DNA of 32,000 bases from an uncultured archaeon (GCA_964354495.1 CAYHAA010000003.1:70507-102506); one strand, 5' to 3'. Positions 6,078 to 26,846 are shown, numbered from the stretch's first letter. The notes: generated from the letters alone by a model not told the origin. Numbers and translations are program-made.

Positions 6078-6118
6078 ATAATTCTAGCAGCCAGTGGTTT
6101 GAAGGTGCACAACCTCAA

Positions 6119-6325: not shown

Positions 6326-6379
6326 CTAGGATTGTTCCGAAACCTCTATAACCGAAAAACCTGCAGACTCGAACGATTT

Positions 6380-6487: not shown

Positions 6488-6530
6488 TCTTCATTTTGAT
6501 AGACCAAATCATCCTGCTGAGCCACCAGCC

Positions 6531-6600
6531 GATCATTGTTAGTTGGAACAGCGTTGACACAAAGGTCAAGCTGACCGTCCAGGAACGGCACTGGACACTT
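6531..6600 (-). ncRNA. Putative omega/reRNA scaffold 3' part overlapping the tnpB stop
   Basis: Hairpins GTCCAG/CTGGAC (6577-6596) and GGTCA/TGACC (6564-6576), alternative TTGAC/GTCAA pairing, GTCAA at 6558-6554; position matches known TnpB reRNA overlap; boundaries uncertain. Confidence 0.4.
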
Positions 6601-8704: not shown

Positions 8705-8734
8705 CGGTCACCACTCTCAATTCTAGGTACAGAA

Positions 8735-8758
8735 TTATATCCTCATATTAGGATATAA
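8735..8758. promoter_or_regulatory. 24-bp near-perfect palindrome overlapping the tnpB TATA box (operator candidate)
   Basis: TTATATCCT-C-ATAT-T-AGGATATAA has one mismatched pair; minus strand reads TTTATAT over 8760-8754. Confidence 0.55.
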
Positions 8759-8852
8759 ATTTACCAAGATTACTATGAAGAATAGAACAGAGTGGTTTTA
8801 AAGTGGCACATTCTGGCTCATGAGGCGAAATAGAAAATAGACACTACTCAAT

Positions 8853-8868
8853 AAAATTCTTATATATA
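8853..8868 (+). promoter_or_regulatory. BRE/TATA-like promoter of the giant gene
   Basis: AAAA-TTC-TTATATATA about 26-34 nt upstream of ATG 8894, the usual archaeal spacing for a short leader. Confidence 0.55.
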
Positions 8869-8893
8869 ATAAGCAACATTCAATCTCATACCA

Positions 8894-11800: not shown

Positions 11801-14296
11801 TATCGACAGACCAGACTCTTGAATGAGCCCAAAAGGGAAACGACAAGGCCGCCTCATTTGGGATTACTCAGGTTTCATGGTGCTGACGTGTTCACGGTTG
11901 TGAGAAATGAACTTGGTGGATTAAGACAGGTTGCGAAAGTCATAGAGAAACGTCATGGGGGGAACAAGGAGTGGAGGGAATTCCTTGATTCATTGAGGCT
12001 GCTTCTAAAGCCGGAAACAATAGGTGACTATAATCAACATACTGTTCTGAACATGCTGCGGTCGGTTCATGTCTTCCTTGAAACCCACGAGTTGAGCAGG
12101 GGTGTTTGGGAAGCCATCAAACCACGCAGGACATGGATTCCGGATGGACTGTCGGAAGAACAGCAGACGAACCTGAGGATTCTCCTAGACAGAGATCCAG
12201 ATCTGTTGCTTTTGGTAGGCAACCATCTCTTTCTTCTTCTTCTAGTATCGCTGCATGAAGCCGAAGCCATGGACCTGTCAACAGGGTTCATTGAAAGACT
12301 CTGGAACTACCTTCTTCCCTTTCAAATGGCAGGGATAGGATTTGAGCCAGAGTATCATTCACAGCATAATACTGGCAAATCATTCCTGCACAGAACTAGA
12401 CTCATCACAAGACTGGCATCTTGGGCAAGGAGTCTAAAACTACTCCAAGCAAATCAGAACGTGAATGAGATTCTCTTTGGGCGCGCGTACCTTGTTGGAA
12501 ACGATAGAGGTGGATTGCCCTCGCACATCTTACTATCTTTTCAGACAACCCTAGGAAGTCATGAAATGAGCATGGCCTTCTTGAAAGCGCCATCGGAGGT
12601 CAAGGGCTCAGTTCATGAAGTCCTTGGGGGTCTGTGCCAAAAAAGACCATTCTGGGGCACGAGTGACCTATTGATTCTCAGAAAGCTAGCAGAGAGTGTG
12701 AGCCCCAGTGTTGGTACTGATATCATGATTGCTTCTCAAAACGGAACTCGTGGCCTTTGGACCTGTGAAAATAGTTCAGACAAATGGATTCCTATTGGAG
12801 GATTCGACTACTATTCGCGGAAACGCGAGATGGCCACACTTCTAATGTCAGCTGTTCTTCGTGAGGACGCGACTCTTCAAGAAGTGCCATGCGAGAGCAT
12901 CAGAACGACGCCTCAGAATCTGAAAGAGTCTATCGACATTGGTCTGCAGCTCATCTCAGCGGCATTCCGGATGTGCATTCCTGTGAGATGTCACGTGTCC
13001 TTGGACTACAATGAGAAGATGTTCAGAATTTCATTTGTGAAGGCTAAGAGGAAGAAAGAAGTGGGAGAACTTCTGATCAAGAAGACCGCAGATATACTTG
13101 AGATTCTGAGAAGACCAGACATTTCGTGTGAACCTGTCGTTGTTGAGGGGAAACAATGCATCTGGAACAGATTCGACGATATCGAGTACGACGAAGATGT
13201 CAAAATCCTGCGACCTTATGTAATTCGAAACAACCCCTTCAAGGTTTATTCGCTAGCATTGCCACAGAATGCAGAGACACTTTGTTCAATAGAAAGAGGG
13301 CGTGTTTTGAGAACGAAGATTCTGCATGACCCGTACGTATGTCCTTTGAGAAGCGTGCGTCTGGAAAATCTCATTCAGCAGCCCATCAAGTCGGCATCTG
13401 TTATTGATTATCTGAGGAACATGGATGGTCATCCTGGGCAACCTGACCCATTGTTCAATCAGTCTATACATAGACATGGAACTTGCTGGAGATTATCATT
13501 CGACTCTGATGATGATCTTCCTGCACAGATCGAGGAACTTGATAAGGTGAAGTTCGGAGGTCCTGCTCTTGCAACCTTCTTAGAGACAGGTGTTGTGTTC
13601 TATTCAACCCCCAACGGAGATTGGGTTTCTCACGAGATACAAGTTCCTGAATCGAGAGATTTGCCCAAGGAGTTTAGGGAATCCATACACCTCATGAGAT
13701 GGAGAAAGGACAACGCTATATATCCTGGCTTCTACCTACTTGACGGCTGGATTCCCGAGATTCAGATCTACAAGGACAGGGTTGATTTCAGACTCGTATC
13801 GAAACTCACACTTCAAGAGAAGACACACTCGATCTTTGAATCTAATGCTGAAATGCTAGAAAAAGAAAGACTGCGATTACTGCTGAAGAGAGGAATGAGT
13901 AGGGTCATCGAACTAGGAGGCTTCTCCGGGAATAGTACTATGAAGCAGTTAGCCAACAGCGAGATTGCAGGTCAACTCGCTCATATTGATAATGAGAGTG
14001 GCATAGAGTTGCAGTATGATTCGGTTGGGGTTGCTGAAGATAGGGTTCGAGAGAAAGTCATCGTGGCAAATTTCGTTACTCATGATGATGAGTATGTGAC
14101 TATTCAGGTAACACAACAGATATTGGTGTACAAGGACTGGACTGCAATGGCAGGGGGCGTTGACTTCGATACAGTAGAAGTAGAAATCAACGATAGGCTA
14201 CAGGGGTATAACGTCAATGATGAACACATTAACAGAATCGCAGAAAGAGCGAGAGAATTGTTAGAAGAAATGGGTGTGGTGTTCTTTGAACCATGA
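8894..14296 (+). CDS. Giant 1800-aa protein with Cas4/RecB-like PD-(D/E)xK nuclease domain and a degenerate RecA-like region
   Basis: G360SAFH, GRID412IL, IE440IK442T, Q495LESY499; then GVSDKGS (~616), ILWLD655FTGEY, FIVVTGFD (~724); basic N-terminus and acidic linker. Confidence 0.8.
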   Translation: MKTARVPENPGKVLTKALQLGLTSTAYLTRSRVTKATRHFYWGGKRRKGIRQMMKDALSDYQRSVNERRPNAKHLQRYENNIRRNHNKVVLNTSVAYGNTEEKRRRRDENRKYINTLADYFGAKIRNTGATKFQFQVPAKLRTAGRAVERYYPGNSRIPEYVPRHVAPELDFVDMIRSHGIELARQCMKYSVPLRDAKRYLDRLIDELIPYLEHVYTEGRAGKKGFIHGGVRVLRKITAEMRTLYGGVNGHPQSITAEISEEIDKSAERSMALDDSQLTETNRVETVVDDEEDRSEPETVEEEDLDTFFNRLLDHCDIVTNPHWKVHVERVRSLVEQGILTRKDAEYFLSLILEDSRKMGSAFHDFIANSEFTVRPFSLLGPIKHGDEMVTENTELLFTCETSVADGRGRIDILVFRRKHLARVDESRPVAIWEPCILIEIKTKNFYGLDLYAITTKSKDMRKRVVEPVLEKRKSERPEWEAIVSSTPTAYEKKQLESYERAVLSDYRKYVRNDSGPPEKLMKGVLVVDLAENWEVLRANIKDLILQAHHSSQEMTLPKRQHFYPTLKSKETRMGLVLFSDYEDRSTAPVENVVEFNPFSHPGGRDDNREFILYLGVSDKGSPSISAAEIAARWHGLKFIHERTKGKNRDILWLDFTGEYRDARLRKKSLRLTLQSKSIQHLVRERIIFVDMSGEMSSYLHERVSIEAPGQKVRESFHGKRRPFIVVTGFDKLRESIPREKMSLLDECIVWLIELVPPHSSVLWFDKPVPTSWTSQEYDTRGIAPFYTSSPWKRVVDEIVYNVPMAPRRWGSYVPAEDDIRWIVIESKFSLDYGTELVPPLYMWGERFRPDGNREDNIDRQQVFYLRSTYSSTRQRNLRKYSKEDFNSVLELIPHLNRFYENPDLNDIERVYDSEEVKMLREELSEIPSSPAPILSRVVFTPNQSLTSVEKDSRVKLLMPLSMINAAREYRQTRLLNEPKRETTRPPHLGLLRFHGADVFTVVRNELGGLRQVAKVIEKRHGGNKEWREFLDSLRLLLKPETIGDYNQHTVLNMLRSVHVFLETHELSRGVWEAIKPRRTWIPDGLSEEQQTNLRILLDRDPDLLLLVGNHLFLLLLVSLHEAEAMDLSTGFIERLWNYLLPFQMAGIGFEPEYHSQHNTGKSFLHRTRLITRLASWARSLKLLQANQNVNEILFGRAYLVGNDRGGLPSHILLSFQTTLGSHEMSMAFLKAPSEVKGSVHEVLGGLCQKRPFWGTSDLLILRKLAESVSPSVGTDIMIASQNGTRGLWTCENSSDKWIPIGGFDYYSRKREMATLLMSAVLREDATLQEVPCESIRTTPQNLKESIDIGLQLISAAFRMCIPVRCHVSLDYNEKMFRISFVKAKRKKEVGELLIKKTADILEILRRPDISCEPVVVEGKQCIWNRFDDIEYDEDVKILRPYVIRNNPFKVYSLALPQNAETLCSIERGRVLRTKILHDPYVCPLRSVRLENLIQQPIKSASVIDYLRNMDGHPGQPDPLFNQSIHRHGTCWRLSFDSDDDLPAQIEELDKVKFGGPALATFLETGVVFYSTPNGDWVSHEIQVPESRDLPKEFRESIHLMRWRKDNAIYPGFYLLDGWIPEIQIYKDRVDFRLVSKLTLQEKTHSIFESNAEMLEKERLRLLLKRGMSRVIELGGFSGNSTMKQLANSEIAGQLAHIDNESGIELQYDSVGVAEDRVREKVIVANFVTHDDEYVTIQVTQQILVYKDWTAMAGGVDFDTVEVEINDRLQGYNVNDEHINRIAERARELLEEMGVVFFEP

Positions 14297-14311
14297 AACT
14301 ATTGCATGGCC

Positions 14312-14410
14312 CCACCAGCCCACAGACCGCCCCTTGCCTGTTCTGCGTTCATAGAGATTGCGGTGTTACAGAGGCCCATGGCTGTCACAAGGCGTATAGT
14401 AGAAGCACAT
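14312..14410 (+). repeat. Dispersed direct repeat copy C1
   Basis: 52-nt core 14317-14368 AGCCCACAGACCGCCCCTTGCCTGTTCTGCGTTCATAGAGATTGCGGTGTTA; distal TGTCACAAG...GAAGCA shared with C4. Confidence 0.9.
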
Positions 14411-14658
14411 CTAGTAGAGAGTACTCTGTAGATCATGAGAGAGCTAGTGGATTCAATTACTGATGATATAGACTAAGTCATTCTACATAATCTCTCTTAG
14501 TCGCGAAATTTACTGTCAGATTCTGGCCAAAAGACAATATCGTTTCAAATTCGGCAAATAAGAGAGCTATCATTTCTTCATAAAACGCGATTGGTAGAAT
14601 TAGCGTCGAATTAGGTCTTGAAAAGTGCAAACGAAACGGAAAAAGGACAACTACGATT

Positions 14659-15132
14659 TCACTCTTTGACTCTGATTCTATAAAAGACCCTGAGAGCCAT
14701 GGCAATCAGTGAAGGCCCCGGAAACGGTAGAATCCAGACTATATAGGCAGGCGTTCCCTGCACAGCTAATGCAAAGAGTGCTAATGGGACAAGCACCTGC
14801 CCGATAATGAGAGCGGCGAGTAGGGCAATATCACGTGCGAAGGTAATGTCGCGCCCTCTCCGCAAGATGAAATACGAAACTATGGTGACTCCTACCCATA
14901 GTAGAGAAAGAATCCAATATGTCAGATTGGGAAATCGATACCAAAGAACATCAGGATATGAGATGGGGAAAAGGAGCCCAGATCGGCTACTGTAAGACCC
15001 CCATGAGAACAGCAAATTTGTGTCAAAATCAAAAAAAACATCTCTCCAATCTACAACGGCAATGGGTGTGCAGAGCGTGGAAAGAGCTAGCAAAACAAGC
15101 TCCCTTATCCTATTCACTCTCTCTTGCTCCAC
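14659..15132 (-). CDS. Hypothetical integral membrane protein
   Basis: 157 aa with 3-4 hydrophobic segments; divergent from the S8 protease. Confidence 0.7.
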   Translation of the reverse strand: MEQERVNRIRELVLLALSTLCTPIAVVDWRDVFFDFDTNLLFSWGSYSSRSGLLFPISYPDVLWYRFPNLTYWILSLLWVGVTIVSYFILRRGRDITFARDIALLAALIIGQVLVPLALFALAVQGTPAYIVWILPFPGPSLIAMALRVFYRIRVKE

Positions 15133-15188
15133 AGGTAGAAATGATTTAAATACTAATTAATGTATCCTTTTATGTTGCTAGGGGGCGC

Positions 15189-18100
15189 ATGTACTTGATT
15201 ATGAAGTTTTATTCTGTGCATGTTCTAATCCTGATACTAGCTCTTGCCACTGTGATGGACTCGAATAACGCAACTGCTAGTTCTGGATTCACCAGTCCGT
15301 CGATGGGTTTCTCTTTAATCGATAGCAACGCAACTGAAGCTGGAATCACGCGAAACGTCCAGACAGGCTCCATGGCAATAATGAACAAAACGCAACTGGA
15401 GCAGAGCTCATATGTCGGCGGAGATATGGTCAAGGGATTTGAAGCACTGAACTACTCTACGACGAGTATCAATGTATTGATACCCAAACTATCATGTTTT
15501 GAAGAGATTTTTTCTGTATCCTCACGGTACTCCGTTAATCCTGTCTCATCACCTATAGATTTCTATAGTTCACTGAATAGCAGCAGCATCGCCGTTGTAA
15601 TGGAGTCTGCCTTAGCAGGACTTACTGATATGGAGCTGTCCGAGTTTGTCACAAATCTCGTTCGATGGGCAGAACAAGGGAATCTCCTAGTCCTAAATGA
15701 CATGAGGTCGCTTGATGAGGATATATGTAGAATCCTTGGAATTAGCTTCCTTGAAACTAAAGTGAGCAATACCTCAACATATCAGGTGAAATTCAAATCA
15801 CCCAGTCCGTTGACACACAATAGAGTTTACAGGGAACTTGAGTTGGATGTGATTCCGACCTGCTTTTTAGTAGTCAATCCTCAGATATCGGAAGCTGTTG
15901 CATCCATTGAAGAGCAAGAACTGCCGTGTGTTGTCTTATCAACACTAGGTAAGGGATTTGTCTTCACTATCGGATTCAACGCGGGATCCATTAAGATACC
16001 AGGATTGCCCACTTTTCGGGGAGTCTTGGAAAATCTATTCGAAATGTACGGGAGTGTACACTTCTACCTCTGCACGGACAGCTTATCTGTTGCAAACCCC
16101 TCTTCACCGCATCTTCACGCAATGCAAGGAAATGAGTCGATACTAGTTGAGATGAGAGAAGTGATTTCCTCTCTGTCTTCGCTTGGTTTCAACGCCTTTG
16201 GGAGTAATCTACTATATGCCGACCACAACGGAGGATACTTTGGCTATGCGTCATTTCATGGGGGATTGCAGTCCTTCGTGCGAATATTTTCTAGTTTTAT
16301 CAGCATAGCATATGATGATACACCTCATATTATTCTATCGAATACAACAAGGATACCCTCTTCTTGCTCCGATGTCTTTTCCAAGATTGATCCTCTGCCT
16401 GTCACTACATTATTTTGGCCTGCTGGCTGGAATCCTCCCGATGTGCCATACTACCATCTTGCACCAACAAAACAGTACTCTCATGACATGGGTAGTGACC
16501 TATGGACGCCTCAGAGTGTAGAAGAGGTCATCAGAGCCGATGACGCTAGGAACCTCGGACCTGCCGGTGATGGTGTCAAAGTAGTCATGGTAGATACGGG
16601 TTTTTCTCGTAATAGAATTAGTGACCCTAACAACCCTGACTATCCCACTGAGCTTGGTTACCATCCATATTACGAGGAATACTGGCGCTACAAAGATCTT
16701 ATGGAATTCCAGTACGCTGGTCATTGGGCTGGAGGCTACAATCCGGACGAGGATACCTATGGCCATGGCACTGGAATAGCATCCAACCTGTTTGCAGTTT
16801 CACCAGATATAGAATTTCACTTTGTCCCGTACTGGGACACAGTGGATGCATTCAGAGTAATACTCGAGGATATTGAGCCGGACGTAGTCACATGTAGCTG
16901 GGGTTGGGCAGGGGAGGATATTCCTGCAATCCCAGCTCTGCAAGATCAGATTAGACAGCTCGCAGAGAATGGGGTAATTGTTGTATTCTCAGGAGGAAAT
17001 GGAGCATACGATAGAACTTGGCCCTCCAGTGAACCGTGTGTTGTATCGGTCGGTGGTGCTTACGTTGACTCTAGTGGGGGCCTCGAAGCATCCAACTATG
17101 CTTCTAGTGGCAGAGAGCCGGCCTTCAACGGCAGAGTTGTCCCTGATGTCTGTGGGATTGTTGGACAACAGCCCTATGGGGTGTTAATCGAGATGCCCAC
17201 TGAGCCAGAGTCAACAATGGATCAAAAGCTTAGTCAGGAGTGTCTTGACGGAACCGGTTATTCGGACGGATGGTGCGTTTTCAGCGGTACGTCGTCAGCA
17301 GCTCCACAAGTCGCAGGTCTAGCTGCTTTGATGAAGGAACTGGAACCCGACTTAAATGTGGGTAGGTTCAAGCATATAGTAATGACAACCTGTACTGATA
17401 TAGTCACTGGACAGAGCTATGATGAGGATGTAGCAGAAAAAGGGTTCGATAAAGCAACTGGAGCAGGCCTGATTGATTGCTATCGTGCGATAAAGACCAT
17501 GCTAGAGTATTCCTCGTCTGGTATTTACGAAGCCAAGACGGAGCCGGATGGGAAATTCATGAACTTCTACTCCTTTACCGGCCCTCATGGACCCAGTTAT
17601 CACGCCGACACAGCTGGAAGTACTCAGTCTGGATACTATTTCTTTGGCTATCTCGTATCACGCGATGGTGCGGTCATGACTCGCCAATACGATGCGTCTG
17701 CAGGATGGTTTCGGATAGCAGGATGGTTCCGCCAATACGACACCTTCACTCCCTCTTTGCAGCCAGGTAGGAGATATCTGGATATGTATGTCCTGTCTGT
17801 AGATGGGAACCAACTAATCAAAGCGGTTAGAATCTTAGACCATGATGATGGCACCAACTGGATATACGTTAATGCTATCGTAACAGACCTTCCAGAGTAT
17901 GGTATGGTTCGAGTGGCCTTCGGAAGATATGACTGTTGGTCGACTGACTGGCAACTCACCGCTGAGTGGGCCAATGTCAATATCTATTCCTATGATCAAT
18001 GGTGGCCGGACACAATCTACGATGGTAGATACTATAGATGGGGATCATCAATTGCACCTGAATCTCATTTGGGAAACACCTACAGAATAGACACAATAGG

Positions 18101-18482
18101 TAGCAGTGAGTATAGCTACTACTTCTTTGGCTATGCATCAGACTATAATCCGTATCTAGGACCTAACACCAAGATATCGATTGCTGGTTGGTTCAGGCAG
18201 GATGATACGTTCGATTCAGATTTGCAGGAAGGTCGAAGATACCTTGACCTCTATGTCATTGACCGCCTGTCTCAACCATGGGCGGTGAAGGCAACATTCA
18301 GAATTCTGGACTACTATGATGGCACAGATTGGGTGCACAGACGATTGGTCTTCCAGATGCCGAGTAATCTCCCTGCAGACTATTATTATATTGCTATTGG
18401 GAGATATGACTGCTGGATGTACGACTGGCACCTAACAGGAGAGTGGAACAATATCCAACTTGTCGTAGGTCCGTCCTTCTAG
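15189..18482 (+). CDS. Secreted S8 (subtilisin-like) serine protease with long N-terminal extension and duplicated C-terminal domain
   Basis: Signal peptide; triad VVMVDTG, YGHGTGIA, FSGTSSAAPQVAG; two ~130-aa C-terminal repeats. Confidence 0.9.
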   Translation: MYLIMKFYSVHVLILILALATVMDSNNATASSGFTSPSMGFSLIDSNATEAGITRNVQTGSMAIMNKTQLEQSSYVGGDMVKGFEALNYSTTSINVLIPKLSCFEEIFSVSSRYSVNPVSSPIDFYSSLNSSSIAVVMESALAGLTDMELSEFVTNLVRWAEQGNLLVLNDMRSLDEDICRILGISFLETKVSNTSTYQVKFKSPSPLTHNRVYRELELDVIPTCFLVVNPQISEAVASIEEQELPCVVLSTLGKGFVFTIGFNAGSIKIPGLPTFRGVLENLFEMYGSVHFYLCTDSLSVANPSSPHLHAMQGNESILVEMREVISSLSSLGFNAFGSNLLYADHNGGYFGYASFHGGLQSFVRIFSSFISIAYDDTPHIILSNTTRIPSSCSDVFSKIDPLPVTTLFWPAGWNPPDVPYYHLAPTKQYSHDMGSDLWTPQSVEEVIRADDARNLGPAGDGVKVVMVDTGFSRNRISDPNNPDYPTELGYHPYYEEYWRYKDLMEFQYAGHWAGGYNPDEDTYGHGTGIASNLFAVSPDIEFHFVPYWDTVDAFRVILEDIEPDVVTCSWGWAGEDIPAIPALQDQIRQLAENGVIVVFSGGNGAYDRTWPSSEPCVVSVGGAYVDSSGGLEASNYASSGREPAFNGRVVPDVCGIVGQQPYGVLIEMPTEPESTMDQKLSQECLDGTGYSDGWCVFSGTSSAAPQVAGLAALMKELEPDLNVGRFKHIVMTTCTDIVTGQSYDEDVAEKGFDKATGAGLIDCYRAIKTMLEYSSSGIYEAKTEPDGKFMNFYSFTGPHGPSYHADTAGSTQSGYYFFGYLVSRDGAVMTRQYDASAGWFRIAGWFRQYDTFTPSLQPGRRYLDMYVLSVDGNQLIKAVRILDHDDGTNWIYVNAIVTDLPEYGMVRVAFGRYDCWSTDWQLTAEWANVNIYSYDQWWPDTIYDGRYYRWGSSIAPESHLGNTYRIDTIGSSEYSYYFFGYASDYNPYLGPNTKISIAGWFRQDDTFDSDLQEGRRYLDLYVIDRLSQPWAVKATFRILDYYDGTDWVHRRLVFQMPSNLPADYYYIAIGRYDCWMYDWHLTGEWNNIQLVVGPSF

Positions 18483-18532
18483 ATTAGAACATAGCCTCCT
18501 TTGTTTGACAGTACAGAAAGCTCTGATAGTTT

Positions 18533-18600
18533 AGCCCACAGACCGCCCCTTGCCTGTTTTGAACTCATAGAGACTGTGGTATTCGCGGGTTGGTATCTGT
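18533..18600 (+). repeat. Dispersed direct repeat copy C2
   Basis: 44/52 identity to C1 core (18533-18584); TATCTGT shared with C4. Confidence 0.88.
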
Positions 18601-18707
18601 GAATACAGAAACCTTGCTGTTTAAATATATATTATTGTGTTTCAGTATTATATACATTATGGTCTTGAAATGCCTGTAGTTCGATGAGTACTTGGAAATG
18701 ATATGAA

Positions 18708-19502
18708 ATGAAAGAAAGTCAAAATCCATCCACTATTCAACAAAGACTACCGCGAGAAGCTCAAAAATTCATACAAGAAATCAGACCATATTGTTCTTCG
18801 ATTGTTCTTGGAGGGTCAAGAGCAAAAAGTGTTGAATCAGAGGGAAGTGATATTGATTTATGTATAATATGTCCAAACAATCAAGGGAAGAGTAAGGTTG
18901 TTTCCTTCTTTCGCGGGATAGGCTCAGAGAAACCACAGCAAAGAGTTCTAGTTGATGCCAAGATTTTCTCAGAGGAGGAGTTTGTGACAGTAATACAAGG
19001 CACGCAGAATGCCTTCTGGTACACATTCATCAGTAATGGTTTGGTCATTCATGGTGCTGAAGTAAATGTAACCTTGTTTTCGCATCAATTTCGTAATACT
19101 GTGTGGGCAGCGATTGATGAATTGAGAGAATCGATTGACCTTATTGAAAAGAATGTATTCCCAGAAATCATAGGTTATAAAGTCTATTCAGCAATATCCA
19201 CTTGTTACACCATTGAATGTCTTCATTACTGCAGACCATTCTCTCAGATTGAAAGAGCAGAATTAATCAGCCAAGTTCTAGGAGATCAGAAACAAGTAAT
19301 GAAGACGCTCTATGATTGTATTAGAAAACGAATGAGAATGGAATTAGCAACGCAGGTCTTGAGCACTGATTTCAAACTAACAAAAACCGGACATTGTAGA
19401 ACTATAGTAGATTCAAACAACTTTGATAGGGCCAAACTCGAGCAATCGATTCAGCATGCCCTTCACCATGCTGAAGAACTTTATCATATACTAGGTGATT
19501 GA
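18708..19502 (+). CDS. Nucleotidyltransferase (MNT, Pol-beta superfamily) with C-terminal helical, possibly HEPN-like, domain
   Basis: IVLGGSRA......SDIDL motif, downstream VDAKI strand; helical C-terminal half. Confidence 0.8.
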   Translation: MKESQNPSTIQQRLPREAQKFIQEIRPYCSSIVLGGSRAKSVESEGSDIDLCIICPNNQGKSKVVSFFRGIGSEKPQQRVLVDAKIFSEEEFVTVIQGTQNAFWYTFISNGLVIHGAEVNVTLFSHQFRNTVWAAIDELRESIDLIEKNVFPEIIGYKVYSAISTCYTIECLHYCRPFSQIERAELISQVLGDQKQVMKTLYDCIRKRMRMELATQVLSTDFKLTKTGHCRTIVDSNNFDRAKLEQSIQHALHHAEELYHILGD

Positions 19503-19559
19503 ATTTCTTAATCTAGCATGACTGTGCGGTCATGCATGTTATATTGAGGATAAGTATTG

Positions 19560-19591
19560 AAAAAAAAGAAGGAGAGTAGGCTATGCTCTCC
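19560..19591 (-). terminator. Hairpin plus T-tract terminator of the minus-strand S8 gene
   Basis: Minus strand GGAGAG-9nt-CTCTCC followed by TTCTTTTTTTT, 23 nt after the stop. Confidence 0.55.
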
Positions 19592-19613
19592 AATTATTCG
19601 CTCGATATGTTCA

Positions 19614-21440
19614 CTACGATGCCGTTAGAAGTATTTCAACATCATAGTAGTCCCCGGACTGACTGCATACTACTATTCGACCATAATAGGTGCCAGTGTA
19701 ATCTGCCCAGTATCCAGTATTTCGATTATTACCAGGATAAGAGGAGGCTACTAATTCCAGGTCCTCATCATAGATCTCAACTTTCAGGATTAGATCGGGG
19801 TCTCCATGTGCACTCACCCACATGAAATAATCTTCTTCACAGTTGAACTTGTACCAGTCTGCACCATCATCACTGTCACCAATCCATAGAGGTTCGTTGT
19901 ATCGAGTGTAGGATGACTCATACACATAGTTGAGTACTATAGGTGCATCCAGACTATTCGAAGATATGTCAGATGTAAGGAAATTATACTCGTCTTGTGC
20001 ATCGACTCTTCCAGCTCCATAGGAGCTATCCAAGCCTGGAGTTGAGTCTTCAGGCATATCAGTCGCAGCTGCCATCAGAAGGTTCTTCACATATGATTGA
20101 TTGTTCTCTGTTTGGCTTAGGTTACAATCATAATCAAGCCAGAGTGCACACAATCCTGCAACAAAAGCTGTTGCCATTGAAGTACCTGACATTTTAATAT
20201 AACCATCATTGTCATCGTAGTCTGCAGCTGTAATGTTAGTTCCAGGTGCAAGAATATCAGGTTTGATTCTATCATCGTCGCAAGGGCCGCGACCAGAATC
20301 TGAAGCCAGCTCCCAGCCATCGCCACTCTCATCAGGATCTACTGCATTTCCCGCGGTGATTACATACTTTCCAGTTCCTGGCTGAGCGATTGTGTCACTA
20401 GAAGGTCCCTCATTACCTGCAGCAACAACAACTACAAGTCCATATGTAGCAACAAGAGTGTCAGCAGCCTGAGCCAATGTGCCATATTCACCATAAGGAG
20501 TGAAACCCCATGAACAACTTACGATGTCTATCCCATATTCAGATTTGTTACCAGCAACCCAATCAAAGGCAGCAAGTGCATCTGACAATAAAATGGTTGC
20601 GTCATACTTTATTATCTTTACACCAACTAGAGCTGCTTCACTGGCAACTCCTCGATATGAACTGTTTGCATCACCTGACCCAGCAGCAATACTTGCACAG
20701 TGAGTACCATGTCCAAGATCATCGTAGGGTTCAGTGTGGATGGTTCCACTAATAATAGTGGAGGAATCATAGGGCACAGTATATTTTTCAAGCATTGTTG
20801 GGACAGAACTCGTGACCGAATCGTCACCGACCAAATCAACCCATCCAATAACCTTTCCACCATCAAGGTCGTAATGGCTATCACTAATTCCTGAATCAAG
20901 TATTGCAATAACGATATCATCCTTGCTATAACCTGTACTATTAGAATCTTTGTCCCCATCTAAGTCAGGATATTGAGATTGAAGCCAATCAACATCGGTG
21001 CGGTTCCTAGCTGAATCCATACAGACCGCATTTTCTTTAATATCAAGATCGATAAAACTCACGAATGAAAGCGTAGCAAGGTCGTATATCTGACTCGATG
21101 TGAGTCGTGCACTAAACCCTCCTAGATATTTCCAGATTCTAAGTAGTTGAACCTCACCCAAATTAGATTTAACTGAAGCTGAATAATCAATATTCGGGTT
21201 TTTACACATGACAACAACATCGAGTTTCTCAAATTCTGATATCTGAGATAGTTCAGGTGTTAGATGAGTACCCATCTTTTCCACTCCTAAAACTGGGTTC
21301 TCACCGGAAAAAACATTTGTCGGATGAATTTGAGCTAATGTCGGATAGCTCAAGATCAACATTAAAAGGATAAATCCACAATAGTGTATCCAATTCTTCT
21401 TTTTCGGCTTCTTGTTTGGTTTTGTTATCTCATTCTGCAT
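19614..21440 (-). CDS. Secreted S8 serine protease (AprX-like) with I9-type propeptide and PPC-like C-terminus
   Basis: IAILDSG, PYDDLGHGTHCASIAAG, VVVVAAGNEG, MSGTSMATAFVAG; C-terminal DGADWYKF. Confidence 0.92.
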   Translation of the reverse strand: MQNEITKPNKKPKKKNWIHYCGFILLMLILSYPTLAQIHPTNVFSGENPVLGVEKMGTHLTPELSQISEFEKLDVVVMCKNPNIDYSASVKSNLGEVQLLRIWKYLGGFSARLTSSQIYDLATLSFVSFIDLDIKENAVCMDSARNRTDVDWLQSQYPDLDGDKDSNSTGYSKDDIVIAILDSGISDSHYDLDGGKVIGWVDLVGDDSVTSSVPTMLEKYTVPYDSSTIISGTIHTEPYDDLGHGTHCASIAAGSGDANSSYRGVASEAALVGVKIIKYDATILLSDALAAFDWVAGNKSEYGIDIVSCSWGFTPYGEYGTLAQAADTLVATYGLVVVVAAGNEGPSSDTIAQPGTGKYVITAGNAVDPDESGDGWELASDSGRGPCDDDRIKPDILAPGTNITAADYDDNDGYIKMSGTSMATAFVAGLCALWLDYDCNLSQTENNQSYVKNLLMAAATDMPEDSTPGLDSSYGAGRVDAQDEYNFLTSDISSNSLDAPIVLNYVYESSYTRYNEPLWIGDSDDGADWYKFNCEEDYFMWVSAHGDPDLILKVEIYDEDLELVASSYPGNNRNTGYWADYTGTYYGRIVVCSQSGDYYDVEILLTAS

Positions 21441-21446
21441 AATACA

Positions 21447-21493
21447 ATCACCATATAGTATATTGCATATCAGTATGCAGTATCTTATATAAG
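21447..21493 (-). promoter_or_regulatory. Promoter and RBS of the AprX-like protease
   Basis: GGTGAT RBS (21452-21447), inverted repeat TGCATA/TATGCA (21464-21479), palindromic TATA element CTTATATAAG (21484-21493). Confidence 0.55.
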
Positions 21494-21727
21494 CTTATCG
21501 CAACTTTGAGTGTACAACTTCCAGCATTAGAGTGAAGAAAGTAGTCAATGGAACTTGAAACAGGTCTTGTTCGGTTATCATTTGGAATCGTAGAATCTTT
21601 CGAAACAGAATAGTCTAGCCAAGGAAACTTTCTCGTGTTATGTTATTTTGGAGATTTGGAAGGCACTCTGACCGAATCTTCTGGTACTATTTCATCGGGA
21701 TGATTTTCTTCTGAGGAAGGAGTATCT

Positions 21728-23602
21728 TCAAGGCCTGCCTTCTTTGTGCCAGTATATCTTGAGAACTGCCGCGATAATAACCACCATGCAGACAACTGAA
21801 ATTACACGTAGAACATAGGTCAATAGGTCAACTGGTTCTAGCTCACCAGTTTCAGTCAGAGTTGTAGCTGTACGATTCAGGGCATAATAGAATTCAGGGT
21901 TATATACCAAGGAATAGTAATCATCAATCTCATAGTCATCCATCAGAAAGGGACCACAGGTAATAAGAGGGTGCGTAAGATTGAAGATTGGATCCCATTC
22001 GTCCCATGTAATCGTGCCATTGTTGAAAAGGTGCTCTGGTACTATGTATCCAGAGGCAAAGTATGAAAAGTTCCTGTATGATTCTGTATCGAATTCCATT
22101 GCAATCCGATACGGGCTGAGTATATCAGTGGCAATGAGAGAGCTTGGAGGCATTCCACCATTATACCAGAAACTACCAGGGAGCGCGTTCGAGTGTCTAC
22201 TGACTAACTGCAATGTGAAGTTCACATCGTGTGCTGTGAGGGGGGTCCCATCGCTCCAGGTCGCATTCTCAAGTATATCGATGACATAGCGCGTATGTCC
22301 AACGGGAACATCAGGATTGCTAGAATTGTTTTGTACTGCGAGGTGCGTTACAAGATTGCCGATTGGCCTGAGTGAGGGGTCATAGTCATACAATGACGGA
22401 TAGAGGAGATCCAGAATCATGTGTGATGAGGATGACTCATAATTGAATATGTTGAAATTTGTAGGAGCTTCAACAATACCAACTGAAACACTCCCACCGT
22501 GCGAAGCCCCTATGGGACGTATCTGTCGAAGAGACCATGAACCAGAGATTCCTTCTCCCAGGTCATTGATATGATTCTCGAACAAGTCGGTTCGATATGC
22601 TTGATAAGTCTGTTTCAAGTAACAGACAAGTCTTGGAACGTTATACTGGAGAATCTTCTGCATCTCAGCAGCAGCTTCGTAGATTTCCTCATAGGTTGTT
22701 CCATTGAGAAGTTGGCTTCTCCAACTATCATAGGTGGCGTTGGCAAAATTCGATGGATTCTGATACTCAACGTCAGCATAGTCAGACCAGTACTCGTACG
22801 CTAACCAGTCAACATCATTACCTTGGAAGTTCGAAGCATAGAAGACCATATCATAGTTTCCATGGCTGCCCAGCCTTGAGATGAATTCGTCGAAGTCTGA
22901 TGCTTGGGTTTCCGCGTTGATACCTAGCCTTCGAAGTGCATCGACACCAATCTGAGCAATACCACCAGCAATCTCTGGGAATGATGCTGCATATTCGATT
23001 GTGATGTTGAAGGGTTCACCCTTGTAGGTTCGGCATTCACCTTCGTCATCATATGGAAATAGACCAGAATCATTCAGTAGTTGATCACCAATTGTGGTCT
23101 GATCAGTGTAATAGTGTGACGTGAATTGGTCTTCAACACACCATCCATTTGAAGAGGGAACAAGTGAGTCGTGTTCCTGTGAGAGACCACCCATGATTTC
23201 TTCAATTACGGCTGTCTTATCAAATGCAAAGGCAAATGCTCTTCTTAGAATGCTCTCGTTCAGTGGGGCATCACGACAGTTAATCGTGATATGACCATAA
23301 CCAATTCCAGCCACATTATTTCTCTCTATGAATGGGTCTGATGATGTCAGCGAACTAACCTGTGTTTCAGAGAGGAATCCTGTGTGCATATCGATGCTAC
23401 CCGATTGAAGGTCCAACATGAGTTGATTAGAGTCTTCAATGACATGGAAGGTTACTCTATCAATATAGGGTCCGATTCTTAGATTCTCATTCACTGAAGC
23501 CTGAAGCGCAGCTGTTGATGATGCTGTGTCAATCTGCGGTACAACTAGAAATGATAATACCAATGAGAGAACAAATACGAGTTTTGCCAGGCCGCTTTTC
23601 AT
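21728..23602 (-). CDS. ABC transporter family-5 (DppA/OppA-like) substrate-binding protein, membrane anchored
   Basis: Signal peptide, GPYIDRVTF, LRRAFAFAFDK, ATWSDGTPLTAHDVNFT, TCGPF, C-terminal TM helix; no permease or ATPase nearby. Confidence 0.9.
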   Translation of the reverse strand: MKSGLAKLVFVLSLVLSFLVVPQIDTASSTAALQASVNENLRIGPYIDRVTFHVIEDSNQLMLDLQSGSIDMHTGFLSETQVSSLTSSDPFIERNNVAGIGYGHITINCRDAPLNESILRRAFAFAFDKTAVIEEIMGGLSQEHDSLVPSSNGWCVEDQFTSHYYTDQTTIGDQLLNDSGLFPYDDEGECRTYKGEPFNITIEYAASFPEIAGGIAQIGVDALRRLGINAETQASDFDEFISRLGSHGNYDMVFYASNFQGNDVDWLAYEYWSDYADVEYQNPSNFANATYDSWRSQLLNGTTYEEIYEAAAEMQKILQYNVPRLVCYLKQTYQAYRTDLFENHINDLGEGISGSWSLRQIRPIGASHGGSVSVGIVEAPTNFNIFNYESSSSHMILDLLYPSLYDYDPSLRPIGNLVTHLAVQNNSSNPDVPVGHTRYVIDILENATWSDGTPLTAHDVNFTLQLVSRHSNALPGSFWYNGGMPPSSLIATDILSPYRIAMEFDTESYRNFSYFASGYIVPEHLFNNGTITWDEWDPIFNLTHPLITCGPFLMDDYEIDDYYSLVYNPEFYYALNRTATTLTETGELEPVDLLTYVLRVISVVCMVVIIAAVLKIYWHKEGRP

Positions 23603-23663
23603 AGCACAAATTCAAATGGCAGTCATGACACATAAAACTACTGGAAGAAGTCGTTAACAATTC

Positions 23664-23879
23664 TCAAATGTTATAGAATTCTCTCACATTTCGAATGATC
23701 TCTGCTTCTTCCTGAAGACCAGCTTTACGAAGTCGAACAGCAAACTCGGATAAGATCTTCATTGATGGACACACCCTGCATTTGCCAGATAACTCACCCA
23801 TTTTGTCAGCCATCTCACCCAAAATATCCTGCAAAGCTCGAATTAGAGCATCACGCTCTAGTAATCCTTTATCAGACAT
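23664..23879 (-). CDS. Small hypothetical protein with CxxC
   Basis: 71 aa, helical, CRVC; co-oriented downstream of the wHTH gene. Confidence 0.55.
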   Translation of the reverse strand: MSDKGLLERDALIRALQDILGEMADKMGELSGKCRVCPSMKILSEFAVRLRKAGLQEEAEIIRNVREFYNI

Positions 23880-23943
23880 TCTTAATCATTATGTCGTGTG
23901 GAGCAATGCTATTTTAGCATCTATTATTCATAGGTATCAATTC

Positions 23944-24255
23944 TCAGGTGCTAATTGAAAGAATTCTTGCAATCTTATAGATGCCTTCGGCCACCTCCCG
24001 ACCTCTGTCCGTCAGACCCAAATAAAGACGGGTCTTCTTCGTTAGCTCGTTGAACTGCTCACGTTCTTCAACGAGCCCCATTTCGACCAATGAGGTTCGG
24101 GTTTTCTCAAGAGCAGGTTGTGATGCAATTCCTTGATTGTCGTATCGTCTTATCAATTCCGAGATGAACTTGTCACCATCCAATAAAGATACTAAAAGAC
24201 GGAGTGCCCCTGTTCTCTCTAATCCTGCCAAGAGGTCAAGATTTGAATGTGCCAT
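23944..24255 (-). CDS. Winged helix-turn-helix transcriptional regulator (HxlR/MarR-like)
   Basis: GALRLLVSL...ISEL...L.EMGLV...YLGLTDRGREVA; ATG at 24255 preferred over the ORF start at 24303. Confidence 0.75.
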   Translation of the reverse strand: MAHSNLDLLAGLERTGALRLLVSLLDGDKFISELIRRYDNQGIASQPALEKTRTSLVEMGLVEEREQFNELTKKTRLYLGLTDRGREVAEGIYKIARILSIST

Positions 24256-24323
24256 ATCTGATTTCACGATGATGACAATACCGTAGTTAGATAAAATAAG
24301 CATTATGCATTCTGCACTATTGT

Positions 24324-24337
24324 AAGAGTCGACTCTT
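24324..24337. promoter_or_regulatory. Perfect 14-bp palindrome AAGAGTCGACTCTT (operator candidate)
   Basis: Self-complementary; 69-82 bp upstream of the wHTH ATG. Confidence 0.45.
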
Positions 24338-24482
24338 CTACTAAATTCACATGCAAACAGAAAAGAACATGTGCATTCGCTATGTGATTAATTCGACAAA
24401 CTCAGCATTAGACTGCAAACAATATCCACAGTAATGATGTTGGGTCATGGAGCTATACCGTAGGTTAAGAGCACAAAAGGAG

Positions 24483-24574
24483 CCACTAGCCCACAGACGG
24501 CCCCTTGCCTGTTCTGCGTTTGTAGAGATTGCGGTGTTAACGAGAATTCCAGATGTCAAAATGCATCATGAAGC
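24483..24574 (+). repeat. Dispersed direct repeat copy C3
   Basis: 49/52 identity to C1 core (24488-24539); distal TGTCA and GAAGC retained. Confidence 0.9.
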
Positions 24575-24647
24575 TGACATTGGCACCAACCGGTCTTATG
24601 ACTTGGAGACTCTAGTTTAATATGATACAACTTCATACCGTACACAG

Positions 24648-24869
24648 GTGGCCACAATGGAGCGGGATTCTATTTCAACGAGAGGGGACTCTACTTCAAA
24701 CCGCAATCTACTCGTTCTTGGAATTTCGCTAGTAATACTTGGAGGCGCTAATCCGGTTTCAGTTCATTTACCCTGGGTGGGTACCCTGCGATATTATTTT
24801 TTCATAGTAGGCGTCACACTCATAATAATGGCTGTGGTGTTCATGATAAAAGACCGCAAAACTCGTTGA
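24648..24869 (+). CDS. Small two-TM membrane protein (paralogue of 28799-28984)
   Basis: LLVLGISLVILGG...LRYYFFIVGVTLIIMAVVFMIKDRK; alternative ATG at 24657. Confidence 0.7.
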   Translation: MATMERDSISTRGDSTSNRNLLVLGISLVILGGANPVSVHLPWVGTLRYYFFIVGVTLIIMAVVFMIKDRKTR

Positions 24870-24875
24870 AGAATG

Positions 24876-24914
24876 GAGAGAGCAATCAGAGTGGGTTCCT
24901 TTTTTTGTTCTCTC
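24876..24914 (+). terminator. T-tract/hairpin terminator immediately before C4
   Basis: GAGAGAGCAA pairs with TTGTTCTCTC; T7 run at 24900-24906. Confidence 0.45.
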
Positions 24915-24925
24915 TCACTTCCTTC

Positions 24926-25021
24926 ACTAGCCGACCGACCGCTCCTTGCCCGTTGTGAGTCCATAGAGATTGCGGTGTTAACGAGGCCGCTATCTGTCAC
25001 AAGCCATATGGTGAAGCAAAT
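24926..25021 (+). repeat. Dispersed direct repeat copy C4
   Basis: 45/52 identity to C1 core (24929-24980); GAGGCC...CTGTCACAAG...GAAGCA shared with C1. Confidence 0.9.
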
Positions 25022-25087
25022 GAACCTGATGACTGCTATAGAAACGCTAATGGATTTCGCGATGATGTGCTTTAAGATGAAATCAAG

Positions 25088-26278
25088 CTATGATCCTCTT
25101 CTGATTCTCTTCATTGTGGCTGAGTACCCTGCAACTCCGATAATAGTGGAAGCGAATAGTACTAGAACGATTCCCAAGAACGGATTGGTACTCAAGGAGA
25201 GTCCTCCACTAAACAGAGGGTCCGGACAGAATTGAGTTCCGCTTCTGGCATTTATCTCGAATTCTTCCACATACACACCGGAGGACACATTCAATTCATA
25301 CGCAAAGGCCCAGGCTGGTTCATAACCCGATTCAAACGGTATACTTCGAAGAAGTCGCAAGTGAACAGCTCGTTCTTTGTGGTCGTTAAGAACATGCTCT
25401 TGGGCAACTGTCCTCGCAGTCGAAATGGAAACGAGATTGGCCAGAGAAACCTCAGGAAGCTGAAGTGCAAAGTACTCGAAACAAAACACACGACCTGTTA
25501 CTGCGTCAATCTGCAAAAGAAGGCCTTGATGCATCCGTTCTGGGAGAACTCTGTTTCTGGCAATCCCAAGCTCAATGATGTACACAGGACGTGTCCAATT
25601 CTCTGGTTCACCAGGAGCAGATTCGTAGGAAAACATCTCAATCCTGGTGTCCAGCAGATAGGTACTGTAAGGTAGTGTATAGTTACGTGCCAAGAGGTAG
25701 TCGCGCCCTATGTATTGCGCTTCAGTCTCATTCTTCACCGGAATGTAGCTCTTTCCTGAATATAATAAGGCATGAAATTCCTCTGAAAGCACTTCATAGT
25801 AGCCAATGACTCTCCCGGTCACCGCATTTAGAGTCACACGTACGTATGCTTCGTAGTCATATATTCCGTTTTCAAGCCGTGTTCCGTTGAAGAAAACATA
25901 TCTCCATTCATTCATCCAGTTCGTCCCTGGATTCTCGGGATCTTCATCCAGAAAGACTCCCAGATCCTCATCGATGAATGAGAGCGCTTTGATTCTTCCT
26001 TCTTCATGGCTTATCGATGGACTCGGAAGATCAAGCTGGTATGTCCCTGCCCATCCCGGCCCTGACCAGTTGCCGGTGATGACTGCAGGATCGGTTTCAT
26101 TCGATAATAGAGGAGCAAACGCAGTCTGAGCAATTTCAACACCTGGCTCAGGAATATCTAAAGTGCTCGTTCCTGCCATCGAACTCAGTAAGAGAGGAAC
26201 AGCGAGGCCAGAGGTCATTGCAGCCGCAGTGATTAGCACAATGGTAATGACTCCTCTCCTAAACACTGCGTTCACCAC
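25088..26278 (-). CDS. Membrane-anchored protein with PepSY-like repeats
   Basis: N- and C-terminal TM helices; three motifs LNAVTGRV, IDAVTGRV, INARSG. Confidence 0.7.
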   Translation of the reverse strand: MVNAVFRRGVITIVLITAAAMTSGLAVPLLLSSMAGTSTLDIPEPGVEIAQTAFAPLLSNETDPAVITGNWSGPGWAGTYQLDLPSPSISHEEGRIKALSFIDEDLGVFLDEDPENPGTNWMNEWRYVFFNGTRLENGIYDYEAYVRVTLNAVTGRVIGYYEVLSEEFHALLYSGKSYIPVKNETEAQYIGRDYLLARNYTLPYSTYLLDTRIEMFSYESAPGEPENWTRPVYIIELGIARNRVLPERMHQGLLLQIDAVTGRVFCFEYFALQLPEVSLANLVSISTARTVAQEHVLNDHKERAVHLRLLRSIPFESGYEPAWAFAYELNVSSGVYVEEFEINARSGTQFCPDPLFSGGLSLSTNPFLGIVLVLFASTIIGVAGYSATMKRIRRGS

Positions 26279-26393: not shown

Positions 26394-26846
26394 CTAGATA
26401 GTGGGTCTGCTCCTCCACATACTCACAGCCTCGTACAAGAAGACGATTATCGAGAATGATGAGAAGAGAACAAGCAGGATGAAATGAGGTGTCAGGTACC
26501 ATCCGAACAGCCACAGTGCTCCAATAAGGTATGATATGGCGAAGAGCGAGTAGAACACATAGCGAGGGAGAAAGAACCCACCCAGTCCAACGAAGAATCG
26601 GAGGATTCCAACTCTGATGTACTTTGTGACTCGAAATCCTTCAATCTGGTCCATCTCAACCAATTCAAGGGCTTCAAGCTTCTTCAGATGGTATAGCACC
26701 AAGCTTGGACTTGAGATTCCCATTCTGCGCTGGATTTCTCTTGCCGAGATTGGTTTTGTCTGTCCAAGAAGAAAGAAGTACACTGCAAGGGTCTTCCCTT
26801 TCAAGTCATCCAAAGTCTGATTATCGTTCACGCACAAACCCCTCAA
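26394..26846 (-). CDS. wHTH (ArsR-like) regulator fused to C-terminal transmembrane helices
   Basis: AREIQRRMGISSPSLVLYHLKKLEALELV followed by 2-3 hydrophobic helices. Confidence 0.8.
   Translation of the reverse strand: MRGLCVNDNQTLDDLKGKTLAVYFFLLGQTKPISAREIQRRMGISSPSLVLYHLKKLEALELVEMDQIEGFRVTKYIRVGILRFFVGLGGFFLPRYVFYSLFAISYLIGALWLFGWYLTPHFILLVLFSSFSIIVFLYEAVSMWRSRPTI

Follow-up and report, generated by a model that had tools for sequence, protein, structure and literature searches.

What are the four dispersed direct repeats that lie between positions 14,312 and 25,021 of this DNA, and why do they stand between blocks of genes? The stretch analysed here, called the window throughout, comprises 32,000 nucleotides (nt) of an uncultured archaeon (GCA_964354495.1 CAYHAA010000003.1:70507-102506), a member of the Thorarchaeota (Asgard) whose genome, G000, has 3.3 Mb in 51 contigs and is 97.7% complete. 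A preliminary description, made from the sequence alone, had proposed that the repeats, which we name C1 to C4, are recombination sites of an integron-like array, repeated ends of an element, or a dispersed non-coding RNA. There is essentially no doubt that C1 to C4 represent the 5' flanking sequence of a tRNA-Lys(CUU) gene together with the first bases of that gene, with the minus strand as the functional strand of all four copies. The best reading of the locus is a tRNA-linked insertion hot spot, in which the copies would be att-like scars of serial insertion at the tRNA 5' end that now serve as recombination boundaries.

A repeat search of the window returned direct repeats on one strand at 14317-14367, 18533-18583, 24488-24538 and 24929-24979, with 51-nt cores that are 86-94% identical to C1; the likeness of C1, C3 and C4 reaches 88 nt. 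The distances from start to start are 4216, 5955 and 441 bp. The left edge of the copies is sharp and their likeness wanes rightward, all four are intergenic, and C1, C2 and C4 begin 17, 51 and 56 nt, respectively, after the stop codon of a plus-strand gene. In these respects we recovered what the preliminary description had reported. It had also considered that the copies might be scattered over the genome as repetitive extragenic palindromes (REP) or miniature inverted-repeat transposable elements (MITE). When the whole assembly was searched with blastn and with an nhmmer profile, C1-C4 were the only clear copies (nhmmer E values of 1e-20 to 1e-26). A fifth, decayed copy, a marginal match consisting of the distal arm only, lies on the same strand 12.5 kb past the window end (115059-115122, minus strand, of the contig that is itself named C3), and a partial copy located directly upstream of HTH150-PepSY genes in a relative (G012, L031/L012) is its ortholog. 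The four copies and the decayed fifth are all found on one strand inside about 30 kb. Because the copies are confined to one locus, they are neither REP nor MITE, and chance is excluded. The spacing, which is irregular and far from the regular 25-40 nt of a CRISPR array, together with the failure to find Cas1 anywhere in the genome, ruled out such an array, and no attC-type fold was seen, in agreement with the preliminary description.

Read on the minus strand, the copies display about 90 nt of rising likeness that stops sharply at ...GTCTGTGGGCT(A/G)GTG. The repeat sequence is also present in eight genomes of the same genus, and in most of them it runs straight into GGGCCAGTGGCTAAGCCAGGTATAGCGACAG, which Infernal recognizes as the first part of complete tRNA genes that have the anticodon CUU and contain one or two introns. 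In 8/8 of the relatives' copies an invariant block, AACACCGCAATCTCTATAAAC (...CAATCTCTATAAAC), precedes tRNA +1 by about 27-46 nt. An archaeal promoter, composed of the transcription factor B recognition element (BRE) and the TATA box, is expected at that distance upstream of a gene start, its A/T-rich box about 25-30 nt before the first transcribed base; judged by its sequence, the conserved block is BRE/TATA-like and a putative tRNA promoter. The TATA box reads TATAAA in all eight relatives' copies and is mutated in all four window copies (TATGAA, TATGAG, TACAAA and TATGGA). None of the window copies runs on into the tRNA, each ending after its first 6 to 12 nt (Table 1); C3, judged by synteny, is the copy that bears the intact tRNA in relatives. 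The copies are thus tRNA-derived direct repeats, made of tRNA-Lys positions 1-6 to 1-12 and the gene's own 5' flank, and their counterparts in relatives are intact genes. We had also considered C1-C4 as stand-alone omega-RNA scaffolds with guides, an idea that was dropped because the variable side is a tRNA gene in relatives.

The ancestral tRNA-Lys gene is destroyed in G000. The gene order in relatives is NMO-(MTase)-tRNA-Lys(minus)-flank-tm73, several species having a second flank copy past tm73, and an intact tRNA restored at the array end is seen in relatives, unlike G000. There, no intact tRNA is found at the array end, and what is left is a 5' fragment of about 18 nt (6513-6530) and, beside the NMO gene, a 3' remnant of 21 nt (1080-1100). 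The only intact tRNA-Lys(CUU) nearby is the resident gene at 6380-6484, which is a different allele from the C1-C4 type and has close homologues in few relatives only; its promoter has weak homology to the repeat and keeps CTATAA. This resident allele appears to stand in for the destroyed gene. It carries its intron in the variable region, and the introns of orthologous tRNA-Lys(CUU) genes vary in number and position between species (L006, L007, L011, L025 and L026), occurring in the anticodon loop, before the anticodon loop or in the T-loop.

In order to compare the blocks among relatives, we aligned Logan contigs from four runs (X1, X5, X6 and X10) to window positions 6200-26199, counting parts of the window without contig cover as absent only where a joint bridges them. 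Additionally, three metagenome contigs were compared by their own sequence (L158, L160 and L161); L126 was set aside as the same strain as G000, and the exact G000 core, used as query in a metagenome scan, gave 0 matches. A 58.8-kb contig of X1 matches window positions 14331-18558 with 30 differences in 4228 positions (about 99.3% identity), a tract made up of block B and, on either side, the half of C1 and of C2 that faces it. Where the contig matches the window elsewhere, it differs at 30/154 and 153/1031 positions, so that the flanks are about 80-85% identical. The near-identity breaks off inside the cores of both C1 and C2, the break in C2 being at 18558. On the same contig, the 7977 nt that hold the tRNA (6380), TnpB and the giant gene are swapped for 1431 nt, and 6034 nt of block C are swapped for 589 nt. 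X1 gives no cover of other G000-specific blocks, which makes it unlikely that the contig is a chimera with a G000-like strain.

Other contigs show other arrangements. Those of X5 and X6 carry the string SBP5-wHTH119-C3-tm73 (the SBP_bac_5 and winged-helix genes of block C, the repeat copy and the gene of block D) at about 96% identity, followed by the flank of junction J1, which is the junction of C4, and a further C4-like copy; they lack block B, C1 and C2, and in them a truncated tnpB directly adjoins 21545. In L160 and L158 the block B gene hyp157 has a homologue in a different slot, between a C4-type copy and tm73. In L161, tm73 is followed by a C3-like copy cut at tRNA position 13 and then by the MTase gene and a giant gene, and the homology to the window stops at 14304, just before C1. 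Cassette content with copies as boundaries thus varies in the X1, X5/X6 and L160 arrangements, and contig evidence gives good support to the view that the copies mark boundaries of exchangeable blocks that differ between close relatives. The preliminary description had suggested such block boundaries and had considered that the cargo order might instead be fixed across strains; the cargo varies. At the X5/X6 joint (6964 to 21545) the last 133 tnpB codons meet the spacer downstream of SBP5, a 14.6-kb difference of which the end is not at a repeat copy.

The block B tract extends from inside the tRNA-proximal half of C2 to inside the distal half of C1, and the two ends overlap in a 12-nt window, AACAGGCAAGGG. 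This geometry is as expected from a single Campbell-type crossover of a circle with one copy, and it fits homologous and site-specific recombination alike. The junctions of the copies also differ in how widely they are found. That of C4 (GTGG followed by AGGAAGTGAGAG) is common to other species (G002, X5/X6, L158 and L160), that of C3 is common to X5/X6 at about 96%, and those of C1 and C2 are common to X1 at about 99.3%. This age gradient, from C4 through C3 to C1/C2, fits new blocks entering at the tRNA-proximal end.

The repeat is not peculiar to G000. A sequence model of it matched 35 of 61 family genomes (G000 included), most of which have a single copy that is the tRNA's own flank. Clustered co-oriented copies are present in G014, G020, G090 and G102 (two each) and in G068 (four), and nhmmer found further copies in the fetched loci of G002, G004 and G008. 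The points of truncation recur: tRNA position 10 (C1 and junctions J1, J2 and J3), positions 13-14 (four junctions) and about positions 48-53, the start of the T-arm. The blocks between copies in relatives encode ordinary proteins (SHMT, flavodoxin, BPL_N-like, TPR, Kelch and NosD-like), with no recombinase among them. A pattern of copy, gene and copy, in which the copy lies 17-56 nt past a convergent stop codon, recurs in several genomes. Relatives also contain two or more tandem tRNA-Lys-like genes or pseudogenes with the same promoter, some of which are cut at about position 48-53 or degenerate.

At C1 the repeat meets a module of a tnpB-like gene and a gene for an 1800-aa protein, arranged head-to-head (Table 1). 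The module recurs head-to-head on two other G000 contigs and is absent from the X1 contig; several other G000 contigs, like X5/X6, retain only C-terminal tnpB fragments. In the window it interrupts the C1 copy at tRNA position 10, a layout that is kept across genera. A 9-nt direct repeat, CCACCAGCC, brackets the module at 6522-6530 and 14312-14320. Upon virtual excision of 6531-14311, C1 reads GGGCTGGTGG-CTCAGC-AGG, as against GGGCCAGTGG-CTAAGCCAGG in the ancestral tRNA; that is, the tRNA continues. C1 therefore has both the 9-nt repeat and an interrupted target continued after the right end, as the flank of a TnpB element should, and no tnpB adjoins C2, C3 or C4. The earlier suggestion of repeated element ends accordingly survives for C1, the left flank of the TnpB and giant-gene element, and fails for C2-C4. 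The same succession of promoter and stub (cut at 13 or 10), element, right-end tail and tRNA-Lys 5' fragment is found in G030, which belongs to another genus, and in G106.

The omega-RNA guide of a TnpB element is encoded by the DNA immediately beyond its right end (PMC10691335). At this guide position the window has an 18-nt tRNA-Lys 5' fragment (Table 1), and a right-end tail followed by an 18-20-nt fragment of this kind was identified in 14 of 86 family genomes, spread over four genera, the reversed control pattern giving 0. Loci with tail and fragment are the window (6513-6539, minus strand), L097, L076, L129-L142, L146 and L152. Wherever an antisense tRNA-Lys is the neighbour (13 loci), the fragment invariably stops near tRNA position 19-22 and has 2-5 mismatches to that tRNA in its first 12 nt, and it matches alleles resident in other genomes; the L097 fragment is identical to the window tRNA (16/16). 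G000 contains no full target of the window fragment, its stubs matching at most 9-11 nt. As far as sequence comparison goes, this suggests that the fragments are guides aimed at non-resident tRNA-Lys alleles. The data support a link between TnpB and tRNA-Lys turnover, with C1 as the only copy physically tied to it. In L161 (1300-2700) a relic right-end tail and tRNA fragment, with no tnpB, are followed by four tandem antisense tRNA 3'-end remnants (ATGGCGGGCC...GAAC) around the MTase gene, and the 3' side of the tRNA-Lys locus therefore gathers scars too.

The 1800-aa protein gave no match in Pfam, NCBIfam, PDB sequences or ESM-Atlas, and its identification as Cas1 or another known enzyme was rejected for want of a family match. 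It is 55-58% identical across genera and its gene is always divergent from tnpB; it could be the integration enzyme of the element. The paralogues of the module, at about 65% nucleotide identity, are too diverged to show shared termini.

The preliminary description had seen no recombinase in its view, and this extends to the whole genome, where neither PF00589 nor PF16795 (tyrosine recombinases, not even Xer-type), PF01797 (Y1 transposase) or PF01867 (Cas1) was detected. No PF00589 match was obtained in the array-bearing genomes G014, G068 and G090 either. Among the window proteins there is no recombinase domain, and no split Int(N)/Int(C) open reading frames flank the copies. Two small serine recombinases are encoded elsewhere in G000 (C22:1317-1724 and C24:10937-11335), one of them in the IS607 layout, with a TnpB paralogue directly downstream.

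A mechanism has to account for what is observed, i.e., the identity of the repeat, its restriction to one locus, the block polymorphism with breakpoints in the cores and the architecture of the TnpB flank. With a probability of about 0.6, we favor recombination through the conserved promoter/5'-end copies by Campbell-type insertion and excision, no integrase having been detected in the genome; how the crossover takes place, which enzyme acts and in what order the events occurred is what we infer. A segment with its own promoter/5'-end copy would recombine with the copy in front of the tRNA by a Campbell-type single crossover inside the conserved stretch of about 25-60 bp from the TATA box to the tRNA start. 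The block would thereby be inserted and the copy duplicated, and the displaced copy would be left upstream as a promoter plus stub. Repeated rounds would build the array, in which distance from the tRNA reflects age, C4 being the oldest and most remote copy and C2 and C1 the youngest and closest ones. The copies could then act as portable boundaries at which lineages of Thorarchaeota gain, lose and exchange blocks. The joining would be carried out by host homologous recombination or by a recombinase acting in trans, either of which is invoked because no integrase was detected in the genome. Later the TnpB and giant-gene element would have entered C1 at tRNA position 10, a second hit on this copy; in the end the ancestral tRNA would have been destroyed and the 6380-6484 allele would have taken over.

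Several points weigh against recombination through the copies. The joining is not caught directly, as neither circular intermediates nor empty sites nor crossovers were seen. The copies are mutually 75-89% identical over the core, which is low for efficient homologous recombination, and the stub ends of independent junctions gather at tRNA positions 10 and 13-14, which looks more like a site-specific cut than like random ends of homology. The two serine recombinases of G000 could act in trans. Blocks B and C have no hallmark mobile-element genes. Junction J3 is common to different genera, so that active shuffling does not extend to the whole array, part of which is old and stable. Finally, X1, X5 and X6 are assembled Logan contigs known by their matches to the window and not by their own sequence.

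Alternatively, the stubs may be tRNA-Lys copies cut or hit by a TnpB with a tRNA-Lys 5' guide, the truncation at about 10-14 being followed by capture of DNA at the break and takeover by a guide-mismatched allele. The motif of tail and fragment in four genera with an empty control speaks for this, as do the 13/13 fragments that mismatch the neighbouring tRNA-Lys yet match alleles elsewhere, the left flanks of the elements, which are promoter plus stub cut at 10 in the window, 13 in G030 and 10 in G106, the loss of any full fragment target from G000, and the relic right end and fragment beside tandem tRNA 3' remnants in L161. However, only C1 adjoins a TnpB element, and seven genomes with stub arrays (G002, G004, G008, G020, G068, G090 and G102) have no match to tail and fragment; for these two reasons we keep the nuclease as a rival and not as the main mechanism. 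The four stubs share one orientation and the element-linked tRNA is inverted, the omega-RNA, the target-adjacent motif and the cleavage are all putative, and the fragment could be the decayed flank of an old insertion. On balance we consider this origin of the stubs unlikely, and we are similarly doubtful of its wider form, in which a TnpB family with fixed tRNA-Lys 5' guides would be paired with guide-mismatched replacement alleles, so that repeated attack and replacement, together with host recombination at an essential tRNA gene, would leave scars used, as in an integron, as cassette boundaries without a recombinase. The recurrence of junctions at tRNA positions 10 and 13-14 would suit classical site-specific integration. 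Here the copies would be attL and attR sites of a tyrosine integrase (pTN3-like, using the 5' half) or of a serine integrase that has since been lost or acts in trans. Direct repeats of one orientation and tRNA origin do bound foreign-looking DNA, pTN3-like integrases use the tRNA 5' half as attB (PMC8371274), and G000 has its two serine recombinase genes. The absence of tyrosine recombinase families from G000 (PF00589 and PF16795) and of PF00589 from three array-bearing relatives argues to the contrary, and so does the lack of split integrase frames at the copies. In addition, known att cores do not resemble a unit that is mainly promoter (50-90 nt) and has only 6-12 nt of tRNA, the array end in G000 lacks a restored intact tRNA, and the blocks of relatives include housekeeping genes such as that for SHMT. 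Taken together, this makes classical integration distinctly improbable.

Two further explanations were considered. The copies could be passive relics of tandem duplication and decay of tRNA-Lys that have no share in block movement, with unrelated insertions and deletions making the blocks. Tandem tRNA-Lys-like genes and pseudogenes with the same promoter do exist in relatives, some junctions are kept across genera, the TATA boxes have decayed, and the X5/X6 joint from 6964 to 21545 is not at a repeat. This explanation is very unlikely, as the near-identity of block B ends in the cores on both sides with flanks that are 15-20% diverged, which is hard to explain without recombination at the copies, and the pattern of copy, gene and copy past convergent stops recurs in several genomes. 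The copies could, instead, be kept as regulatory elements that direct antisense transcripts into convergent gene 3' ends, or they could encode an RNA. They contain a promoter-like block aimed at the 3' ends of plus-strand genes, and the wHTH-SBP5-S8 gene string begins 180 nt downstream of C3, on the strand of that copy. Against this, the TATA box is mutated in every window copy, no RNA sequencing run contains this DNA, and an Rfam scan of the window found no family for the copies, its sole match being the tRNA at 6380-6484. The folds of single copies, on both strands, differ between copies and are no better than those of shuffles (z from -1.8 to +0.95), and the consensus fold of 12 copies reaches only -3.7 kcal/mol with 0 compensatory pairs. 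These scans and folds rule out a structured RNA, leaving no support for the dispersed non-coding RNA of the preliminary description, and a regulatory role is the least credible of all these explanations, less so than even the passive one.

Table 1. Repeat copies, blocks and neighbouring features of the tRNA-Lys locus (window coordinates)
Feature	Position	Strand	Content
C1	14312-14405	-	tRNA-Lys promoter flank and tRNA positions 1-10 (GGGCTGGTGG); also left flank of the TnpB and giant-gene module
C2	18532-18621	-	promoter flank and tRNA positions 1-6 (GGGCTA); distal arm differs from the other copies
C3	24481-24576	-	promoter flank and tRNA positions 1-12 (GGGCTAGTGGCT)
C4	24925-25017	-	stub of about 9-10 nt; most diverged and oldest copy; junction J1, common to other species
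Block B	14406-18531		157-aa membrane protein hyp157 (14659-15132, -); 1097-aa S8 protease (15189-18482, +)
Block C	18622-24480		nucleotidyltransferase (18708-19502, +); S8 protease (19614-21440, -); SBP_bac_5 (21728-23602, -); winged-helix protein (23944-24303, -)
Block D, tm73	24648-24869	+	gene for 73-aa small membrane protein between C3 and C4; two-copy layout kept in several species
TnpB and 1800-aa module	6566-14296		TnpB-like, 712 aa (6566-8704, -); 1800-aa gene (8894-14296, +); head-to-head, multi-copy
TnpB right-end tail and tRNA-Lys 5' fragment	6513-6539	-	tail ACAATGATC, then 18-nt fragment GGCTGGTGGCTCAGCAGG at guide position; first 9 nt repeat the C1 stub
Resident tRNA-Lys(CUU) and promoter	6337-6484	+	gene 6380-6484, non-canonical intron, allele GGGCCGATTGCTCAGCC
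tRNA-Lys 3' remnant	1080-1100	-	T-arm and acceptor strand, GGGTTCAAATCCCGTCTGGCC; 21 nt, adjoins NMO gene

The genes within and around the array were examined for other signs of mobility or function. A transposase domain in the block B protease was rejected, as the members of its cluster labelled transposase are ISH3 insertions in homologues of other genomes. In L127 (910-4143) and L128 (208-3411), a segment of an ISH3/DDE_Tnp_1 transposase is fused to, or stands in place of, the N-terminal third of the protease homologue, and these homologues lie beside ribosomal protein genes with no repeat copies. The small protein hyp157 was rejected as a small transposase, being a membrane protein. Models of defence systems gave generic subtilase matches only, and the cargo was therefore not accepted as a defence system. 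An exact-protein look-up of tm73 returned no record. A trio of an HTH150-like regulator, a 608-aa S8 protease and a 264-aa nucleotidyltransferase is encoded in the window (18708-21440 and 26394-26846), in paralogous clusters on two G000 contigs (contig C4:728-4823 and contig C3:118247-121740), and beside ribosomal protein genes in other Thorarchaeota (L127 and L128). The resident tRNA is separated from the tRNA 3' remnant by genes at 2030-6325 for proteins of the AbiV-type HEPN, DUF5677-like and Schlafen/AlbA_2 kinds, which resemble an additional insertion, because in L076 the MTase gene directly adjoins tnpB.

How does this locus compare with known systems? The genes for tRNAs are classic landing sites for mobile DNA, which almost always uses their 3' part and an integrase borne by the element. 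The locus shares with such tRNA-island accretion, the closest kind known, the direct repeats of one orientation and tRNA origin that bound successive variable blocks, a tRNA 3' remnant at the far end, and a hot spot in many related genomes. It differs in its unit, which is a promoter flank plus 6-12 nt of the tRNA 5' end and not the 3' part, in the lack of a detected integrase in the locus or the genome and of hallmark mobile genes in the blocks, and in that the target tRNA is destroyed rather than restored, with another allele standing in. What is new here is tRNA-linked island accretion on a promoter plus 5' stub. The only archaeal integrases reported to use the tRNA 5' half as attB are the pTN3-like (SSV-type) ones of Thermococcales (PMC8371274). 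With these the locus has in common the insertion at the tRNA 5' side, so that incoming DNA must supply the promoter; however, their att core lies within both the tRNA 5' half and the integrase gene, the latter being split on integration, whereas here the homology is mostly upstream and neither an integrase nor Int(N)/Int(C) parts were found.

The comparison with integrons, made in the preliminary description, holds in part. There is an array of genes plus sites in one orientation, entry is seemingly beside a fixed site with the oldest copy farthest away, and the content varies between relatives, with variable blocks at the copies. In contrast to integrons, there is no IntI and no imperfect palindrome (R''-L''/L'-R') or single-strand fold of the attC type, the blocks are multi-gene with genes on both strands, and the sites derive from a tRNA promoter; as the repeat is a tRNA-Lys promoter plus 5' stub, the locus is a tRNA-linked hot spot rather than an integron. 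The module at C1 resembles TnpB elements of the IS200/IS605 and IS607 groups in its right-end tail followed by flank at the guide position, in being multi-copy, and in having one paralogue beside an IS607-type serine recombinase. It differs from them in that it concerns C1 only, in carrying an 1800-aa gene of no known family instead of TnpA or Cas1, in the 9-12-nt duplication of tRNA positions 2-10/13, and in the inverted tRNA-Lys of another allele that always follows. Asgard TnpB loci have been described as "often flanked with repeats" (PMC10691335). The aloposons of Heimdallarchaeum, located at tRNA sites (PMC8813620), are a related theme, set apart by their description: twin genes for 3000-6000-aa proteins and a ParA-like set, with no TnpB or promoter-stub array described.

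For the Asgard archaea, these results amount to the accretion of DNA, block by block, at repeated tRNA promoters with their 5' stubs, with no integrase found in the genome, and a 4.2-kb block bounded by copies has recently been shared between lineages with 15-20% flank divergence. Those who annotate such genomes should be aware that intergenic repeats of this kind are tRNA gene debris. If the neighbouring TnpB triggers the joining, RNA-guided nucleases would be tied to the turnover of an essential tRNA gene. If, instead, host recombination across promoter copies joins the blocks, this would be a simple and general route of gene exchange in Asgard archaea.

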